From the NCBI GenBank assembly GCA_965243135.1, contig OZ251539.1:1248001-1312000 (forward strand): a stretch of 64,000 bases of DNA. Reading direction: 5' to 3'. The position numbers were made by a program. This DNA comes from Alphaproteobacteria bacterium. Its GTDB lineage: Bacteria; Pseudomonadota; Alphaproteobacteria; MPNO01; UBA830. Positions 27,001-45,000 of the stretch are shown one piece after another. Within the stretch, counting starts at the first letter, position 1; each line of letters starts with the position of its first letter.

Positions 27001-30000
27001 CTGCGCGCCGTGGGGCTTCTCGTCGGCGACACCCCGCGGCGCGCGGGCATCGTGCCGTTCGGGCGCGCCGAATGCACGAACATGCCGCAATGCTTGTGCG
27101 CTCCTACGCGGCCGGTCCGAGCGTTTGGACGACCGCGGTTCAACGGCAACATCTTCACGCTTCTTGCGCAGGGGAGCGCTTCCTGCACTCCGCCCGGCAG
27201 GTTCGAGGCCGGATGCGAGCCGCCGCCGCTCGCGACACGCGAGGCTCTCGTGAACGCCTTTTGGCCTACGCGATTCGCGGCGCCCTCGTGAACGCGACGG
27301 TCTACGACGACCGCCTGGAGATCGTGTCCTCCGACCTTCCGGCTTCCGGGTTGAGTTCGGAAAACCGTTCGCGCCGCACGATCGCCTGCAGCCGAACCCG
27401 CGGATCGCTGAGGATGATGGAATGGACTTCCTCTGCGGGGTAGCCCGTCCGGAGGAAAGCCAAGGTAGGCGTTCGCTACCCGGGGGACGAAAAAATTTCG
27501 TCCGGGGACCGTACACGGGATCCTTCACCCCTCGTTTTTGCTTCGAAGCGACCGACGGACGAGGGGCTTTGCCGCCGGCAACGGCCCTCCGGCGGCGGGA
27601 CGAGGCGCGCCAGAAAGCGGAAGCGTCGCGCGGAAGCAAGTCAGCAGGCGACGTTCCGGAAAACGCGGCGGGCAACGAACTGAAACGCCTGAAGTCGGCC
27701 TCTTCGGCGAACGAGCGGGCCGCCCGCGGCGAAGCCGAGGGAGCGCGTCGACGAACGCGGCAACGCCCGCAGCGCGCAACTGCAAGCTTGACAAGTTCGA
27801 GAGCGAGCGCACCCGACGCGCGCAGGAGAGCGGCGCGGAACGAGAAGCCCGGCGGGGCGATAGCCCGGGTCGCCGTCGCGCGGACGCGCGCCGCGTTTGC
27901 CGGGTTCCTGGCCGCTGTCAGCGGCAAGCCTTGCGCGAGAAATGGAGAAAAGGCCACTCGTCGAGTTTCGCGCCGCGGCGTTGTCGCCGGCCCGGCACCG
28001 AGATGATCGCGCGTGCGGAAGCGGGAGGTGCGCCGGCGCCGCGGCCGGTCGCGAACGACGGCGTCGGTACCGGGACTTGCGCCCCGCGCGACCGCGACAG
28101 TCGCTCGACTTCGAGGTCTTGCCGACGGGGAACGGCGTCAGGCGCCCCTTGTTCGCGCCCCGTCCGCCGACATCGTTCGTTCGGCGACGGTTTCCGGCGC
28201 GGCGGTCCGGCGGCCGGCTGTCAGCGCCTTGAGCGCCATCATGTTCTCTTCCTGGCGGCGTTCTTCGGCTGCGCGCCGCTCCTGCGTGGCCGTGCGCTGT
28301 TCTTGCTCGCGTTCGTCGTTGGCGCAAATGCCGTACGCCAACGGCCGCTACGACGGCCGCTGCGCGACGCTCTTCGCAGCCGCAGTACGCTGGCCCCGCG
28401 GACGCTTTCCCGCGACTTTTCAGGCGCTTACCGGTCGAGTGCCGCACGAGCGACGAGCGCTGCCGCCTTTGACGAAGCGCAGGCCGAACCCGCGGCGGCG
28501 TTCTTTCGCGGAGGCGGCCGTGACGGGAAGCCGTTCAGGCGGCCTCGCAGTCGAACCCGACGACGTTGCGCTCCTCGCGGCTGAACTCCACCCCGATCAG
28601 GTGGACCGAACGTCCGAGACGGCGGTACTTGTCCGCATATCCCTTCTCCCGCAACTGCGCGAGCGCGGTCCCCTCCCGCCCGCGCTCCACCACCTTGAAC
28701 TCGAACAGGTAGACGCGCCCGCCGACGCGGATCGCCATGTCGGCGCGCCCCCGGCTGCCGCTGTCCTCGGCGACCGGCTCAAGGCCCTCCATCAGGAAGC
28801 AACTGTGGATGACGCTCGCGTAGTGGGCCTCGTACTTCGCGACGGGGCTGTTCATGTACCACTGGTGCGGGATGGCGGCGAAGACGCCGCGGAACAGGGT
28901 TTCGAGACGCTTGAAGTCGTTCGCCTCCAGCAATTCGCCCAGCCGCAGGTTCTCCGTCTCCTCGCGGGCCTCGGCCGGGAGCAGTTCTTCCAGCAGGGCC
29001 TCGCCCAGGCTCTGGCGCACCTCGAGGTTCGGGTAGTCCAGCCTGTAGCGCCCGTCCTCCTCGCCGGCGATGGTGAGGTAGCCGGTCTGGAACAGAAGCG
29101 CCTGGACCGACATCCTGTCCACGTCGAAGGCCGAGAGCAGGCTCTCGCTGCCGATCATGCCGTCCAGGCGGGGAGTGGGCAGGTTGCGGCGCGCCAGCGT
29201 CTCGATCAGGAAGGTCGGCGTGCCGCTCTCGAACCAGTAGTTGCCGAACCTGCGCTCGGCGAACAGCAGCAGGAGGCCGAACGGATTGTAGAGCTTCTCC
29301 GGCCCGCGCCAGTTGTAGCCGTTGTACCAGCGGCGGATTTCGTCCCGGTCCAGGCCCTCCAGTTCCGGGGCGAAGACCGCGTCCAGTTCCGCGTCCGTGC
29401 AGCCGCAGATGTCCGAGAACTCCGGAGCCAGCGTGATGTCGCGCAGGTTGTTCAGGCCCGAGAACAGGCCTGCCTTCGAGAACTTGCTCACCCCCGTCAG
29501 GAAAACGAAACGGAGATGCTCGTCGCAGTCTTTGATCACCCCGTACAGGTCGCGCAGGAAGCCGCGGTTGGCCAGCGCCAGTTCCCGGTCTCCGAGCGCG
29601 TCCAGAATCGGCTTGTCGTACTCGTCCACCAGCACGACCACGCGCCGCCCGGCGCGCTCGTGCAGTTCGGAGATCAGATGGTGAAGGCGGTCGGAGGCGT
29701 CCGGGTAGCCGCATTGGACGCCGGCGCGCTTTTCGGCGGCGTCGAGCTGCATCATCGCGTTCCTGTGCAGCCGGTCGGGGACGACGAAATTGCGCCCGCC
29801 GAAGCTGAGCCGCACGACGGCGCGTCGACCAGTCCCACTTGTCGTGCACGGCGAGGCCCCGGAACAACTCCTCGCTTCCCTCGAACAGCTTCTGCAGCGT
29901 GTCCACCAGCAGCGTCTTGCCGAACCGGCGCGGACGCGACAGGAAATAATACTGACCACCCTCGACGAGGCGGCGGACATGGTCCGTCTTGTCGACGTAG

Positions 30001-42000: not shown

Positions 42001-45000
42001 ATGTCGGCGCGCCCCCGGCTGCCGCTGTCCTCGGCCACCGGCTCGACGCCCTCCATCAGGAAGCAGCTGTGGATGACGCTCGCGTAGTGGGCCTCGTACT
42101 TCGCAACCGGGCTGTTCATGTACCACTGGTGCGGGATGGCGGCGAAAACGCCGCGGAACAGGGTTTCGAGACGCCTGAAGTCGTTCGCCGCCAGCAATTC
42201 GCCCAGCCGCAGGTTCTCCGTCTCCTCGCGGGCCTCGACCGGGAGCAGTTCTTCCAGCAGGGCCTCGCCCAGGCTCTGGCGCACCTCGAGGTTCGGGTAG
42301 TCCAGCCGGTAGCGCCCGTCCTCCTCGCCGGCGATGGTGAGGTAGCCGGTCTGGAACAGAAGCGCCTGGACCGACATCCTGTCCACGTCGAAGGTCGAGA
42401 GCAGGCTCTCGCTGCCGATCATGCCGTCCAGGCGGGGAGTGGGCAGGTCGCGGCGCGCCAGCGTCTCGACCAGGAAGGTCGGCGTGCCGCTCTCGAACCA
42501 GTAGTTGCCGAACCTGCGCTCGGCGAACAGCAGCAGCAGGCCGAACGGGTTGTAGAGCCTCTCCGGCCCGCACCAGTTGTAGCCGTTGTACCAGCGCCGG
42601 ATTTCGTCCCGGTTCAGGCCCTCGAGTTCCGGGGCGAAGACCGTGTCCAGTTCCGCGTCCGTGCAGCCGCAGATGTCCGAGAACTCCGGCGCCAGCGTGA
42701 TGTCGCGCAGGTTGTTCAGGCCCGAGAACAGGCCTGCCTTCGAGAACTTGCTCACCCCCGTCAGGAAGACGAAGCGGAGATGCCTGTCGCAGTCCTTGAT
42801 AACCCCGTACAGGTCGCGCAGGAAGCCGCGGTTGGCCAGCGCCAGTTCCCGGTCGCCGAGCGCGTCCAGGATCGGCTTGTCGTATTCGTCCACCAGCACG
42901 ACCGCCCGCTGCCCGGTGCGCTCGTGCAGTTCGGAGATCAGATGGTGCAGGCGGTCGGAGGCGTCCGGGTAGCCGCATTGGACGCCGGCGCGCTTTTCGG
43001 CGGCGTCGAGCTGCATCATCGCGTTCCTGTGCAGCCGGTCGGGGACGACGAAATTGCGCCCGCCGAAACTGAGCCGCACGACCGGGTAGCGCACTGACCA
43101 GTCCCACTTGCCGTGCACGGCGAGGCCCCGGAACAGCTCCTCGCTTCCTTCGAACAGCTCTTGCAGCGTGTCCACCAGGAGGGTCTTGCCGAACCGGCGC
43201 GGACGCGAGAGGAAATAGTATTTGCCCCTCTCGACGAGGCGGCGCACATGGTCCGTCTTGTCGATGTAGTAGCAGTCCATCCCCCGGATCTCCCGGAGGG
43301 AGGAAAAGCCGATCGGAAGCATGCGTTTCGTCATTCGAAGAGGGTAGGCCGCCGCGCCGGAACCGTCAAGAAGTCGGCGGCGGCCGGCTTGTCTTGCGCC
43401 GCGTCCCCTGGCGCGACAAGCAGCCGGCAGTTTCCGCGGCGGTACGGGCGACCGGCGGGGAAAAGCGCGGGGGCGAGCGAACCTGTCGCTCCGCGGAAAT
43501 CCCGCCCCGCCGAGGCGAGCGCGTTCGGCACGCGCAACGCGCGGCCTGGAGGCCGCGGGCGGAAGCGAACGCCGACGGAATGCGCTGCCGCCAAAGGCGA
43601 CGCACGTCGACAACGACGTCGACGCCGGATTCGCGAGTCTCGACGGCAAGGTCGACGCCCTCGCCGCGGAAACCGGGGCCGGCGCAACGCGACGGCAAGC
43701 GCCCTCGCCAGGGAAAGCCGCGCGCAACTAGGACGATTGTCGCGGCAGGCCTCGCCGCCCCTGCGTTGGTTCGCCCCGAAGATCCGCACGCGACGACGAC
43801 ATGCGCCTCAAGCGGCGAAACGCCTGAACGCCAGACAACGGTTCCGTCGAACGAGAGCGTCGTCCGGTCGGGCGAGGCGGACCTCCACCTCCTTGAGCGA
43901 AAAATCTTCCGGCGCGGAAATCTCAGCCGTGACCTGTGAGCAACCGAATCGGTTGGCGAAAGTCAGAGAAAAATGCAGCGCAGTGAAAAAATGTGGAATC
44001 ATGCCGCTACCTTGGCGTGAGATCGTCCTGGGTGGAAAGCGACGGCGTCTTGACGGCCCGGCTTCGGCGCCGCAGCTTGGACGATCACGCTGCGGAACAA
44101 GTGCAGGAATCCTGAAACCCGCCACCGCAACCTGCCGCTGATGGTCAACAACGCCAAAGTCCTGCCTTGGGCAGGAACCTTGCGTCCTATGCCCTCACCC
44201 TGGTCGAACGGCGGTTGCCGGACGACTGGGATCTCCGTTACGCGTCGCGTCCGGTCCCGCCCGAGACCTTCTGCGAAATGCCGCGCTTCGCGGGAACCTG
44301 CTACCGGGCCGCCAGCAAGGTCGGCGCGACCCAGGGCCGCGCGGCAACACCCGGCGCGAACGCGCTCACCCGGTCAAGGATGCTGAAGCCTCTGCGACGG
44401 GACAGGAGACGGATCCTCAAAAAATAGACTGTCACTTGACGAACGAACGCTTACGGTTTGGGTTTCTCAAGAACGATTTATTTCCTGATCGGACGCCTTG
44501 TTATCGGCGTTCTTCAAGCCGAGAGCGCCTATAGCCTTCCGAATATCCTGACGAATACGAATTCCGTCGCGGATACGCGCCAAAAAGCCATAGTCCGGTC
44601 TCTTCGCCGGCACGTCGTCAGGGAACATGTGCACGCAAACAAAGGCATCCCAGAGAGTCTCGTCGCGAGAATCTTGGGGTTCGTCAAATTCCTTATGGAG
44701 TCCGAAGGTCATAACGGAAGGGCCTCCCTGAACGCCGCGCATTTCGCCGTGGCCGTGGAACCTCGAGGGCCGACCAGGGGGATCTCGCCGGAACCATTCT
44801 TCGCGAGCTTTCGGTGACCCTCTGCCGCTGCGCGACCGCGAAATCATCCGAGCACGAAAAGGCTTTCCTGCGTCGATCAATCATGACCAGTATTTACGTT
44901 ATTGACGAGCTGTCAACCAACCCCGGACACGGCTAATTTGTTCTAATTCTGTCGTTGTCCGCCGGGTGCCTTCTGCGAGTGTTTTCGGTCATCCGCAAAT

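Follow-up and report, generated by a model that had tools for sequence, protein, structure and literature searches.

How did one gene come to fill a row such as that at 28535-43334, and what might its many copies do? All coordinates refer to the 64,000-nt stretch analysed (the window), which is part of the 6.1-Mb genome, a single contig, of a sponge-associated bacterium. The first-pass annotation had described seven genes in this row, and we indeed found seven copies on the minus strand, of which six are open and one is frameshifted (Table 1). Their assignment to the DUF1703 family (PF09820 plus PF08011) was confirmed by Pfam matches to both domains, by whole-genome scans, and by a custom HMM. 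Six of the ten window ORFs submitted to Pfam carried both domains above the cut-off, the remaining four being wrong-frame or antisense, while the genome scans returned 152 matches to PF09820 (150 of the 198 first-look candidates scored) and 140 to PF08011. A type III R-M system is located between this row and the second DUF1703 row of the window. Among the contigs from four studies' runs that cover the flagged row, one lacks 5 nt at a hot spot for deletions in the family.

Table 1 DUF1703 copies and associated elements in the window.
Feature	Position	Strand	Description
Copy 1	28535..30068	-	Frameshifted pseudogene; HMM 1-511 in two frames; PF09820 (partial) + PF08011
Copy 1 deletion scar	29810-29824		5 nt, CGCGCC/GTCGTGCGG
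Copy 2	30418..31953	-	Intact; PF09820 2.7e-58, PF08011 9.6e-16; HMM 1-511 in one frame
Copy 3	32767..34299	-	Intact; HMM 1-511 in one frame; PF09820 + PF08011 in genome scans
Copy 4	34957..36474	-	Open frame, but two codons deleted in each of three conserved stretches; both Pfam domains
Copy 5	37178..38713	-	Intact; both Pfam domains; used as query and folded
Copy 6	39476..41011	-	Intact; both Pfam domains; HMM in one frame
Copy 7	41799..43334	-	Intact; both Pfam domains; HMM in one frame
Promoter-like element 1 (-35 to -10)	30075..30103	-	6 nt before ATG; pattern match, 2 mismatches
Promoter-like element 2	31960..31988	-	TTGACG-N17-TACCCT-N6-ATG; pattern match, 0 mismatches
Promoter-like element 3	34306..34334	-	Pattern match
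Promoter-like element 4	36481..36509	-	Pattern match
Promoter-like element 5	38720..38748	-	TTGACG 38748-38743, TACTCT 38725-38720, ATG 38713-38711; direct reading and pattern match
Promoter-like element 6	41018..41046	-	Pattern match
Promoter-like element 7	43341..43369	-	Pattern match
Array spacer	38755..39475	-	99.4% identical to spacer 41053-41798 (blastn, sliding identity)
3' motif CTCCGCGAAAG after copy 5	37146..37156	-	
CTCCGCGAAAG, other exact window copies	28503-28513, 30386-30396, 41767-41777, 14962-14972		
Second row, four copies	9029..16540	-	Custom HMM and pattern match
Second row, frameshifted copy	9029-10509	-	5-nt deletion scar at 10259-10273
Second row, intact copies	11077-12612, 12750-14282, 15017-16540	-	
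Second row, promoter-like elements	10516-10544, 12619-12647, 14289-14317, 16547-16575	-	Pattern match

Searching all stop-to-stop ORFs with the custom HMM yielded 172 loci, namely 97 full-length genes with a single frame, 27 that span the full length but contain frameshifts, and 48 partial ones, which together take up 217,992 bp or 3.57% of the genome. The size reported before (101 full-length and some 80 shorter ORFs, about 3.4%) thus holds, while its components were recounted. Six genes are each split in two by a group II intron and thereby account for 12 of the 48 partial loci; the intron homes into a site that is conserved among the copies. The loci form 78 clusters, 40 of them singletons, and the arrays run head-to-tail, as had been proposed. 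All 97 intact copies encode distinct proteins; pairwise CDS identity has a median of 80%, lies at ~89-92% within a subfamily, and peaks at 97.7%, above the earlier figure of over 85%. The first look gave 196-198 candidates in this genome, and the next largest number among 637 other genomes was 36; the counts of 23, 12, 4, 9 and none in the remaining relatives were reproduced. The ~170-copy family is the largest DUF1703 expansion among the genomes searched, in line with the original claim, and also the most dynamic.

A promoter of its own had been ascribed to each copy, and TTGAC-N17/18-TAnnnT-N6-ATG is present in 91 of the 97 intact copies and in all 11 window copies (0 expected by chance); ATG is the start codon in 96 of 97. 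In divergent copies the sequence of the promoter's internal spacer is altered, whereas hexamers and spacing are kept. This geometry precedes a long ORF 105 times in the genome, 97 times within the family, against a background of 1-6 for other spacings, and among 80 relatives from other phyla, 22 have TAnnnT 6-7 nt ahead of the start (controls, 0-3). A sigma-70 consensus scan called no promoter at the row because TACCCT agrees with TATAAT at just three of six positions. Each copy may nevertheless be transcribed from its own sigma-70-type promoter. The -10-to-ATG spacing on which leaderless transcription had been proposed is present: with the hexamer ending 6 nt ahead of the ATG, each gene would give a leaderless mRNA and thus form a self-sufficient expression cassette.

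How far the duplicated unit extends depends on where a copy lies. Over all pairs, homology extends for a median of 39 bp ahead of the ATG and for 5 bp beyond the stop, close to the 40 bp and 1 bp quoted before. The accompanying view that copies share just promoter and ORF is correct as a family-wide median, but not for arrays, for the flanks of lone copies, or for a conserved 3' motif. In the flagged array the spacers are 80-100% identical among themselves, and the complete 2.3-kb unit is duplicated. Since the spacers are homologous too, the arrays arose by tandem duplication. The ORFs of spacer 38755..39475 gave no Pfam match and the spacer no Rfam family; it is non-coding as far as tested. 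Lone copies (n=26) share with some distant copy a median of 201 bp upstream (44-711 bp) and 106 bp downstream (17-468 bp), and a search for terminal inverted repeats at them revealed none, merely seven 12-nt matches of chance size. A fixed-end transposon was therefore rejected. The motif CTCCGCGAAAG lies 25-60 nt past the DUF1703 stop; of its 73 occurrences in the genome, 65 follow a family copy on the 3' side at a distance of up to 150 nt, with ~4 expected from base composition, and it is part of the unit. These data show that the family grew by ordinary DNA-level duplication, both of tandem gene-plus-spacer units and of segments of variable extent copied to new sites.

Once duplicated, the copies exchange sequence. 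The units at 37178 and 39476 have spacers that are 99-100% identical, whereas their CDS are 74-97% identical, with patches that are 98-99% identical to other copies. The longest shared runs span on average 35-37 polymorphic sites compared to 21-22 after permutation, and 323 of 1225 pairs in subfamily A and 393 of 990 in subfamily B reach p<=0.01 in this test. DUF1703 copies are thus mosaics, and gene conversion moves patches between them. One variable segment of two helices (aa 88-140), which follows strand 2 and precedes the Walker B strand, falls into 13 classes shared between subfamilies; the class combinations observed number 47 and 26, against random expectations of 48.9 and 28.2, which shows that this cassette is randomly reassorted against the remaining protein.

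Selection acts unevenly on these proteins. Overall dN/dS is 0.43-0.47, falling to 0.14-0.28 in the catalytic cores. It rises to ~1 in two stretches of subfamily B, aa 271-300 and aa 361-390, and to ~1 or more over aa 271-330 of subfamily A. The Walker A K50 (97/97), Walker B D149 (97/97) and E150 (95/97), and the nuclease residues D444 (91/97), E457 (97/97) and K459 (95/97) are retained, showing purifying selection on the catalytic residues of both ATPase and nuclease. From a dS of 0.18-0.27 within subfamilies it follows that open copies live long without decay. At the same time, 75 of the 172 loci (44%) are decayed, mainly via 5-7-nt deletions, so the family evolves by birth and death; 5-6-nt indels are also frequent in other repeats of the genome. 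Some ORFs counted as intact have 2-codon deletions within conserved motifs. Copy 4, for instance, shows the gaps GVSKL--AG, NSPV--YEAH and KYRR--RSVH, which correspond to alleles lacking 6 nt at aa 197/198, 410-412 and 484-493. Given the proportion of decayed loci, a high dN/dS of ~0.45, and such deletions, much of the family is possibly under weak selection.

An AlphaFold2 model of copy 5 (pLDDT 84.9) points to two modules. For residues 4-356 the best matches are two archaeal AAA+ proteins, 2fna and 2qen (Z 15.8), followed by plant NLRs (Z 13.4) and then CED-4, ORC, TnsC (Z 10.6) and Avs; residues 352-511 resemble the nuclease domain of CidB (Z 11.2; Foldseek match 7esz). As modelled, the protein is an ORC/STAND-like P-loop ATPase with a CidB-like PD-(D/E)XK nuclease, encoded by a stand-alone gene.

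Relatives of several phyla have 12-33 copies each, and in the tree the copies of each genome cluster as their own clade, which could stem from concerted evolution or from independent expansion. The 105 flanking ORFs in relatives include 12 of the CRISPR type III, TA, methylase or OLD-like kind, 9 that encode transposases or integrases, and 7 additional DUF1703 copies, all counts without a baseline. Homologues occur on 65 plasmid records and on virome contigs. Known defence-system models from PADLOC and NCBIfam gave 0 matches each, and the distance of DUF1703 clusters from DNA methylase genes in this genome is no shorter than for random points (4 of 25 at 5 kb or less, 4.4 expected).

We consider it probable, with some reservation, that the copies encode a conflict-type ATP-dependent nuclease whose gene family evolves by birth and death and by gene conversion. 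The flagged row is one of 78 sites at which a single stand-alone gene has multiplied, and its product would be an ATP-dependent enzyme that cuts nucleic acids in conflict or defence. The type III R-M system between the rows, the flanking ORFs in relatives and the plasmid-borne homologues speak for such a role; the zero PADLOC and NCBIfam matches and the methylase distances speak against it. If so, the many shuffled copies may constitute a repertoire of specificities.

One alternative, which we regard as unlikely, is that the protein drives its own spread and the family is a genomic parasite, by homing-like break repair that copies the gene or as a transposase-like nuclease with its AAA+ domain, as in TnsA/TnsC. 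The structural similarity to TnsC, the compact, putatively self-expressed cassette, the homologues on plasmids and virome contigs, the genome-specific clades, the patchy distribution in the genus (198, 23, 12, 4 and 0 candidates), and the proportion of decayed loci, resembling IS families, all fit such an element, and the accessible part of one report places a bacterial DUF1703 gene inside the selfish Medea element of Tribolium (PMC6387759). However, the ends of lone copies are variable and lack terminal inverted repeats, near-identical copies are absent, and arrays include non-coding spacers; purifying selection on catalytic sites and cores in nearly all open copies is compatible with both readings. 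Improbable as well is a non-adaptive proliferation, in which unequal crossing-over amplified a once-useful gene under weak selection in a host-restricted symbiont, with shuffling as a mere by-product of numerous homologous copies that do not serve as a repertoire. It would account for the numerous decayed copies, the dN/dS of ~0.45 with stretches near 1, the 5-6-nt indels in other repeats, and the absence of a defence-island signal in this genome, but sits poorly with catalytic residues intact in 91-97 of 97 open copies, with the retained promoter (91/97) and ATG (96/97), with the long persistence implied by dS, and with the 12-33 copies per genome in relatives of several phyla.

The nuclease could also be exported against nucleic acids of the sponge or of competitors, a role proposed for Cardinium DUF1703 proteins and known from CifB-type toxins. 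The organism is host-associated, the nuclease domain resembles CidB/CinB, and Cardinium paralogues are predicted to be secreted, as stated in the part of PMC6387759 available. We find this very doubtful, as the conserved ATPase domain starts right at the N-terminus, with MTKRMLPIG; homologues from free-living lineages align with it from residue 1 onwards, which, as read from the alignment, leaves no room for a signal peptide. Besides, the protein has just one nuclease domain and its gene no conserved partner, the spacer ORFs lacking Pfam matches. That mis-assembly or polishing produced the repeats or mosaics is hardly credible. Although repeats are difficult to assemble and the 5-6-nt indel spectrum is odd, the genome is one contig, its 97 distinct proteins show purifying selection at the codon level, and the covering contigs from four studies match the row at 95-100% identity.

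For the nuclease half of the favoured conflict-type enzyme, a first reference is DUF91, which we take to be the NucS family. According to the accessible part of Knizewski et al. (2007, PMC1913061), DUF91 is closest to the DUF1703 nuclease domain. The mismatch endonuclease EndoMS/NucS is likewise a PD-(D/E)XK nuclease, and its cleavage produces 5' overhangs of 5 nt, which fall in the same size class as our deletion scars (PMC4838380, consulted in part); in contrast, Pfam gave no sequence match to it for the DUF1703 C-terminal domain, and the indel signature extends genome-wide among repeats. CifB/CinB nucleases of cytoplasmic incompatibility share an AAA-ATPase-like motif, a PD-(D/E)XK domain and a structural match in the latter, but in the available text of PMC12445526 CifB acts with CifA as partner and contains two nuclease domains, compared to one domain and no partner gene here.

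Archaeal ATPase families of the PF01637 type are multi-copy in archaeal genomes. Two members, 2fna (SSO1545) and 2qen (PABY2304), align with residues 4-356 over 280 positions (Z 15.8), yet at 11-14% sequence identity and without a PD-(D/E)XK domain. STAND/NLR-type ATPases (Avs3/Avs5, plant NLRs, CED-4/Apaf-1) and RADAR RdrA have a similar NTPase module, fused in Avs to a nuclease effector, and NLRs form large, recombining birth-and-death repertoires; the DUF1703 protein differs by its C-terminal nuclease, by lacking a repeat-type sensor domain, and by the absence of a PADLOC match.

The protein itself shows no differences from the DUF1703 family as far as described in the accessible part of PMC1913061: both domains exceed the Pfam cut-offs, and the four-part architecture, the odd Walker A RPRRFGK(T/S), the Walker B DEYD, and the nuclease D...ExK plus Q are shared. 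Cardinium cCpun offers a close parallel for its multiplication, with a lineage-specific expansion in a symbiont, recombination between paralogues and per-genome clustering (PeerJ 2019, PMC6387759, seen in part). That genome, however, has 25 old paralogues at a mean of 39% amino acid identity, compared to 172 loci at 68-98% here; set against the same partial source, our genome adds head-to-tail arrays with homologous spacers, a promoter-like element per copy, cassette reassortment and intron homing, and signal peptides are not evident from the alignment. Relative to the DUF1703 family, the novelty is the copy number together with a conserved, presumably leaderless promoter cassette.

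The row of seven DUF1703 genes described in the first-pass annotation was recovered in full, although its first copy turned out to be frameshifted (see table). Ten ORFs of the window were submitted to Pfam; six genes of the row matched both PF09820 (AAA-ATPase_like) and PF08011 (PDDEXK_9), the remaining four ORFs were antisense or wrong-frame, and the seventh gene was found by whole-genome family scans. For five of the open copies in the row, PF09820 scored 196–203 bits (E 2.7e-58 to 4.9e-60, cut-off 26.1), and the C-terminal PDDEXK_9 domain scored 52–59 bits on the row copies (gathering cut-off 25.5). 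An Rfam scan of the window returned 0 families, and a tRNA search of the window returned none. Throughout the source of the window, a single contig of 6,103,318 bp with 65% G+C, we found 152 matches to PF09820 and 140 to PF08011; 150 of the 198 candidates of the initial genome search (first-look candidates) scored with PF09820. A family HMM derived from five copies of the window and applied to all stop-to-stop ORFs of the genome yielded 172 family loci, of which 97 are full-length in one frame (open copies), 27 span the full length but are frameshifted, and 48 are partial. The annotated counts of 101 full-length and about 80 shorter genes, covering about 3.4% of the genome, were right as to a large family and are replaced by these numbers and by 217,992 bp of family DNA (3.57% of the genome). 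Of the 78 clusters that the loci form, 40 consist of one locus and 23 of two, and the longest rows reach 16 copies. The plus strand carries 60 loci and the minus strand 112, and within rows the arrangement is head-to-tail nearly everywhere. The open copies comprise subfamilies A (50 copies) and B (45 copies), which diverge chiefly in the C-terminal half, and two copies distant from both. Overall, the annotated family is confirmed as real and its expansion as exceptional.

Coordinates of the features discussed in the text (window positions count from the start of the window, C1 denotes the whole contig)
Feature	Sequence	Position	Strand
Flagged row, seven head-to-tail DUF1703 genes of ~1.53 kb each, spacers 352–816 bp	window	28535–43334	-
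First copy of flagged row, frameshifted	window	28538–30068	-
Seventh gene, found by whole-genome family scans	window	32767–34299	
Open copy with 6-nt deletion	window	34957–36474	
Second row, four copies	window	9029–16540	-
5-nt deletion scars	window	29810–29824; 10259–10273	
Antisense shadow ORFs	window	36857–39178; 39350–41848	+
Type III restriction-modification genes (N6_N4_Mtase, ResIII), between the two DUF1703 rows	window	16797–22363	-
DDE_Tnp_1 transposase ORF	window	44936–46843	-
ISAZ013-type transposase	window	49647–50903	+
HTH proteins	window	53490–57584; 62866–63261	
N6_Mtase-containing ORF, 1027 aa (second methylase)	window	59676–62756	
Split FAD-dependent oxidoreductase (PF12831)	window	840–1982; 3444–3884	+
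Intron-split copy L081	C1	1149713–1152098	
Intron-split copy L082	C1	2664734–2669812	
Further intron-split copies	C1	1933579–1935949; 3617911–3620295; 4118662–4121041; 2889071–2891333	
Repeat GCCGACAAAAAAYGGCGCAGCGCAAACGCCTC, example sites	genome	1337705; 1418828; 3671413; 5709724	

The open copies are 1518–1569 nt long, begin with ATG in 96 of 97 cases, and end with TGA (94) or TAA (3). Directly upstream, 91 of the 97 carry the element TTGAC-N17/18-TAnnnT-N6-ATG (N17 in 84, N18 in 7), most frequently with the hexamers TTGACG (77), TACCCT (39), and TACTCT (34), in agreement with the per-copy promoter that had been annotated before the ATG. The element precedes all 11 copies of the window, two broken ones among them, compared to a chance expectation of 0. 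In divergent copies, both hexamers and both distances are constant while the internal spacer sequence changes, which is what would be expected of a working promoter. Judged by a -10 hexamer that ends 5–8 nt before the start without Shine-Dalgarno spacing, these 91 copies have the layout of leaderless genes. With just 6 nt between the hexamer and the start codon, the predicted transcription start would coincide with or adjoin the A of the ATG, and the mRNA of each copy would be leaderless. A sigma-70 consensus scan called no promoter at family copies because TACCCT fits TATAAT at just three positions. The geometry of the element is nearly private to the family in this genome: it was found before 105 long high-GC3 ORFs, 97 belonging to the family and 8 to others, and control spacings gave 1–6. 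Downstream, the motif CTCCGCGAAAG lies 25–60 nt beyond the stop codon, and 65 of its 73 genomic occurrences follow a family copy on the 3' side at a distance of at most 150 nt; comparison of both subfamilies by eye revealed no consistent hairpin at this motif.

A separate repeat, GCCGACAAAAAAYGGCGCAGCGCAAACGCCTC, occurs at about 50 sites genome-wide, most of them not beside family genes; it often lies immediately upstream of the -35 of subfamily B copies, and on its opposite strand a T-run comes after a GC hairpin, terminator-like in appearance. We also observed shadow ORFs of 770–830 aa antisense to the family genes, arginine-rich as is typical for high-GC3 genes. In several public gene calls for family members, the start is placed 18 codons too far downstream (493 aa), probably owing to the lack of a ribosome-binding site at the true start.

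The first-pass annotation had stated that homology between copies ends close to the ATG and the stop codon. As a family-wide median over all pairs this holds, with homology reaching 39 bp beyond the ATG on the upstream side and 5 bp beyond the stop codon, but the median masks the mechanism of duplication, as array spacers are homologous. The spacers of the flagged row are 80–100% identical among themselves, which shows tandem duplication of entire 2.3-kb units, and the direct repeats flanking copies are array spacers. For the 26 lone open copies, the flank shared with some distant copy has a median length of 201 bp upstream (range 44–711 bp) and 106 bp downstream (17–468 bp). The family has no terminal inverted repeats, with just seven 12-nt inverted matches among 97 copies, and no pair exceeds 98% CDS identity (maximum 97.7%). 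Taken together, the variable flanks, the lack of inverted repeats and of near-identical copies, and the homologous spacers argue for unequal crossing-over with occasional segmental copies and against a fixed-end transposon. An IS association was also rejected on locus numbers, since the genome contains just about 4 ISAZ013 and 9 DDE_Tnp_1 loci, too few for 78 sites. The four same-genus genomes, with DNA 65–79% identical and a neighbourhood that is not syntenic, are too diverged for an empty-site comparison, and joints in the contigs of four runs were not taken to indicate rearrangement on account of short joint sides (22–44 letters) and short contigs. The DDE_Tnp_1 transposase of the window carries an N-terminal DruA-like (Druantia) domain, and the ISAZ013-type transposase of the window has more than 25 diverged copies in one same-genus genome. 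Outside the family and its flanks, a self-megablast of the genome gave 3,289 alignments among repeats (3.6 Mb summed), indicating further sizeable repeat families.

The sequences of the copies additionally bear traces of exchange. The units at 37178 and 39476 have spacers that are 99–100% identical over about 720 bp but coding regions that are just 74–97% identical, with patches 98–99% identical to other copies in the row. Like spacers beside unlike coding regions are the opposite of simple duplication, which indicates that the genes were overwritten patchwise. In a GENECONV-like permutation test, in which the longest runs of shared polymorphic sites are compared with those under shuffled site order, the mean longest runs were 35.1 vs 21.9 in A and 37.0 vs 21.4 in B, and 323 of 1225 pairs (A) and 393 of 990 pairs (B) gave p ≤ 0.01. 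All 97 open-copy proteins are mutually distinct. The most variable stretch, aa 88–140, falls into 13 classes at 80% identity, the major ones common to A and B; these classes occur in 47 combinations with those of aa 268–312 (48.9 by chance) and in 26 with those of aa 358–511 (28.2 by chance), close to random in both cases. Between the latter two regions there is linkage, with 15 combinations vs 27.3 by chance. In the predicted model, aa 88–140 fold into a hairpin of two helices that separates strand 2 from the Walker B strand, a position at which initiator-clade AAA+ proteins carry a DNA-contacting insertion. We infer that this cassette probably sets target specificity.

Subfamily A has a dN/dS ratio of 0.43 and subfamily B one of 0.47. 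The ratio falls to 0.14–0.28 around Walker A and, in subfamily A, also across the nuclease domain, and it reaches about 1 or above at aa 271–330 in A and about 1 at aa 271–300 and 361–390 in B. Catalytic residues are intact in 91–97 of the 97 open copies. When the 97 open copies were aligned with 37 broken ones, the alignment contained 64 occurrences of 5-nt deletions (13 alleles), 158 of 6-nt deletions (42 alleles), and 12 of 7-nt deletions (6 alleles), compared to 27 occurrences (17 alleles) for 1–4 nt combined. An identical 5-nt deletion beside GGCGCGCC at aa 83 is present in 16 broken copies of both subfamilies, a 5-nt deletion within the Walker B motif in 10 broken copies, and individual broken copies carry four to six scars. 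Such recurrent identical 5-nt deletions are the main source of family pseudogenes, and a 5-nt deletion at one of the hot spots (place 29671) was seen in a contig from another study. Deletions of 6 nt are also found in open copies, some inside conserved motifs, so that the number of functional copies is below 97. The excess of 5–6-nt (and some 7-nt) deletions involves little microhomology. The same 5–6-nt peak in family flanks and unrelated repeats rules out that these deletions are specific to the family; the peak is a property of the genome's repeats. An apparent "AT-start" rule for deleted pentamers, seen at first, failed in the alignment-based catalogue.

The initial search gave 196–198 first-look candidates in this genome. 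Of the four genomes from the same genus, three have 23, 12, and 4 candidates and one has none, and 9 were found in one genome out of 56 further relatives; the annotated counts for relatives (23, 12, 4, and 9) were reproduced exactly on recount. In a sample of 400 genomes from the phylum, 11 had a match, with a maximum of 10 candidates. Candidate numbers range from 12 to 32 in five genomes from other phyla in which the closest relatives occur, the maximum in a 151-genome sample of one such phylum was 33, and a protein-query search raised the number of first-look candidates in one same-genus genome to 36, the next highest count among the genomes searched. The claim that this is the largest expansion to be found is thereby borne out for these genomes, at a scale 5–6 times the next largest count. 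The same-genus genome G004 (loci L083–L112) has 20 copies whose proteins are 56–59% identical to those of the window and whose upstream regions are of the Shine-Dalgarno type, without the leaderless promoter; it represents an independent expansion of a different DUF1703 lineage. In a FastTree phylogeny of 92 rows (22 of the 97 copies of the genome, 15 metagenome proteins, 43 outside loci, and 8 of 16 and 4 of 7 loci from two relatives), the A and B copies and metagenomic relatives formed one clade (support 99), and every other genome's copies clustered in their own clade, a pattern compatible with separate expansions in each genome or with concerted evolution. At 55–64% identity, the nearest relatives outside come from MAGs of Latescibacterota, Acidobacteriota, Gammaproteobacteria, Spirochaetia, Gemmatimonadota, and others. 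Among 80 outside relatives, TAnnnT lies 6–7 nt before an in-frame start in 22 (controls 0–3), and a Shine-Dalgarno-like sequence is present in 25. The DNA of the flagged row is present in runs labelled sponge metagenome, and none of the runs found to contain it is an RNA run. Among 72,556 plasmid records, 65 carry homologues, as do 29 unannotated virome contigs.

DUF1703 was defined by Knizewski et al. 2007, where the same architecture was predicted and the odd Walker A remarked upon (PMC1913061). The text of PMC6387759 describes a 25-copy DUF1703 expansion with recombining paralogues in Cardinium cCpun and ten or more copies in 9.8% of species. In the main texts of the literature, cCpun is the only published expansion we found, and we found none of the size seen here; supplementary data could name larger counts. 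The tendency of the family to expand and recombine is thus known already, and the genes belong to a known family. New are the scale, the putative conserved leaderless promoter cassette, one freely reassorting cassette, the deletion-scar spectrum, and the family-homing intron.

The intron was found in six family copies that are interrupted at one codon, between GGCTACCTCA and CCATCG, by an insert in sense orientation. It begins with GTGCG and measures 770–846 bp in five of the copies, the sixth having an insert of 3.5 kb. The insert in L081 scored 77 bits with RF02003 (cut-off 49) and 51 bits with RF00029 (cut-off 40), and that in L082 also exceeded the cut-off of RF02003. Judged by the D1–D4 and D5/D6 models and the 5' GUGYG, the insert in the six copies is a group II intron; it has 29 blastn hits across the genome, and the multi-copy family is a set of homing sites for it. 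The split copies may still be functional after splicing. The largest ORF in the 3.5-kb intron copy had no Pfam hit, so that an intron-encoded protein was not found. Elsewhere in the window, a FAD-dependent oxidoreductase gene (PF12831) is split into two parts covering 331 N-terminal and 72 C-terminal profile positions about 1.5 kb apart. Most of the gap falls into the bin 2001–4000, which has the lowest G+C of the window (0.53; genome ~0.65), and probably marks an insertion.

The proteins share a variant Walker A, RPRRFGK(S/T) (R44, R46, G49, and K50 in 97/97, R47 in 95/97), a Walker B, DEYD (D149 in 97/97, E150 and D152 in 95/97 each), and PD-(D/E)XK motifs (E414 in 90/97, D444 in 91/97, E457 in 97/97, K459 in 95/97, and Q472 in 92/97). 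In an AlphaFold2 model based on an alignment of 46 homologues (pLDDT 84.9, pTM 0.84), residues 4–356 best matched the archaeal AAA+ proteins SSO1545 and PABY2304 (Z 15.8, 280 residues aligned), followed by plant NLRs (Z 13.4) and by CED-4, ORC2, TnsC, MalT, Avs5, BrxC, and Avs3 (Z 9.4–11). VIA-align scores for the STAND ATPases among them were Z 11.0 (CED-4), 10.5 (Avs5), and 9.4 (Avs3); since ORC and TnsC score like STAND proteins, the fold match does not single out a clade. Residues 352–511 matched the CidB nuclease domain (Z 11.2). Foldseek was in agreement, with hits to ORC1/Cdc6, Apaf-1, RFC, Avs3, and RdrA. NCBIfam gave 0 hits, a sequence search of the PDB just two chance-level hits, and PADLOC-DB 2.0, queried with one copy per subfamily, 0 families at E ≤ 0.1.

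Several observations suggest that the DUF1703 family may serve in conflict or defence. The STAND/ORC-like ATPase plus nuclease architecture and the birth-and-death evolution with a shuffled repertoire point in this direction, as does the setting in the window, where type III restriction-modification genes lie between the rows and transposases and a second methylase nearby. Against such a role stand the lack of a match to known defence models and the position of the clusters, which are not nearer to methylases than random: compared to random points, no enrichment near the 25 DNA methylase genes was seen in what is a weak test, the family being everywhere. The neighbours of relatives count again in favour of the role: in their flanks (105 flanking ORFs out of 136 candidates, with no background rate for comparison), 12 ORFs encode CRISPR type III RAMP, Csm6-HEPN, TA, methylase, OLD-like, or DUF4143 ATPase proteins, 9 encode transposases or integrases, and 7 are more DUF1703 copies. 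Type III CRISPR-Cas genes were seen beside three DUF1703 loci of other phyla, with RAMP on both sides of L063 and at L070, and Csm6 HEPN at L015. That the genes are selfish, a reading to be weighed alongside the plasmid and virome homologues as well as the missing terminal inverted repeats, appears unlikely to us. Neutral amplification has to be set beside the recurrent decay of copies and the dN/dS and intact catalytic residues of the open ones; we regard it as quite improbable. The most far-reaching form of the defence reading, a germline-encoded, combinatorially shuffled, self-diversifying repertoire of ATP-dependent nucleases that would be the bacterial counterpart of NLR-type immune clusters, is a long shot.

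In this far-reaching reading, a NucS-like PD-(D/E)XK domain might cut mismatched heteroduplexes between paralogues with a 5–6-nt stagger. The resulting breaks could seed gene conversion, by which the DNA-facing cassette at aa 88–140 would be reshuffled, and template-free joining would inactivate copies through deletions of 5–7 nt. With a leaderless promoter, the cassette would be open to expression in any host, which would account for its spread across sponge-symbiont phyla. The search of the genome for a canonical NucS gave just a partial 34-bit match, and that for Ku gave no match.

DUF1703 is a widespread ATPase-nuclease of unknown function, and about a hundred open, recombining copies with apparently intact catalytic residues provide a natural experiment, in which the leaderless cassette would offer ready-made expression constructs. 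An investment of 3.6% of the genome raises the question of whether many copies are needed or impossible to shed. If the copies were a diversified defence repertoire, the logic of large innate-immune gene families would reach bacteria; if they were selfish, they would represent a new kind of mobile gene without transposase-type structure.

Among known systems, CifB-type toxins have two PD-(D/E)XK domains and are encoded next to a cifA-like partner, whereas each protein here has one PDDEXK_9, and no spacer ORF of the arrays had a family match that would indicate a partner gene. The C-terminal repeat sensor (TPR, LRR, WD40) of STAND/Avs-type immune ATPases is absent, as the nuclease domain ends at residue 511 and neither repeat families in Pfam nor a repeat region in the model was found. 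What the DUF1703 protein would have in common with these immune ATPases, according to the predicted structure, is the STAND-like NTPase fold.
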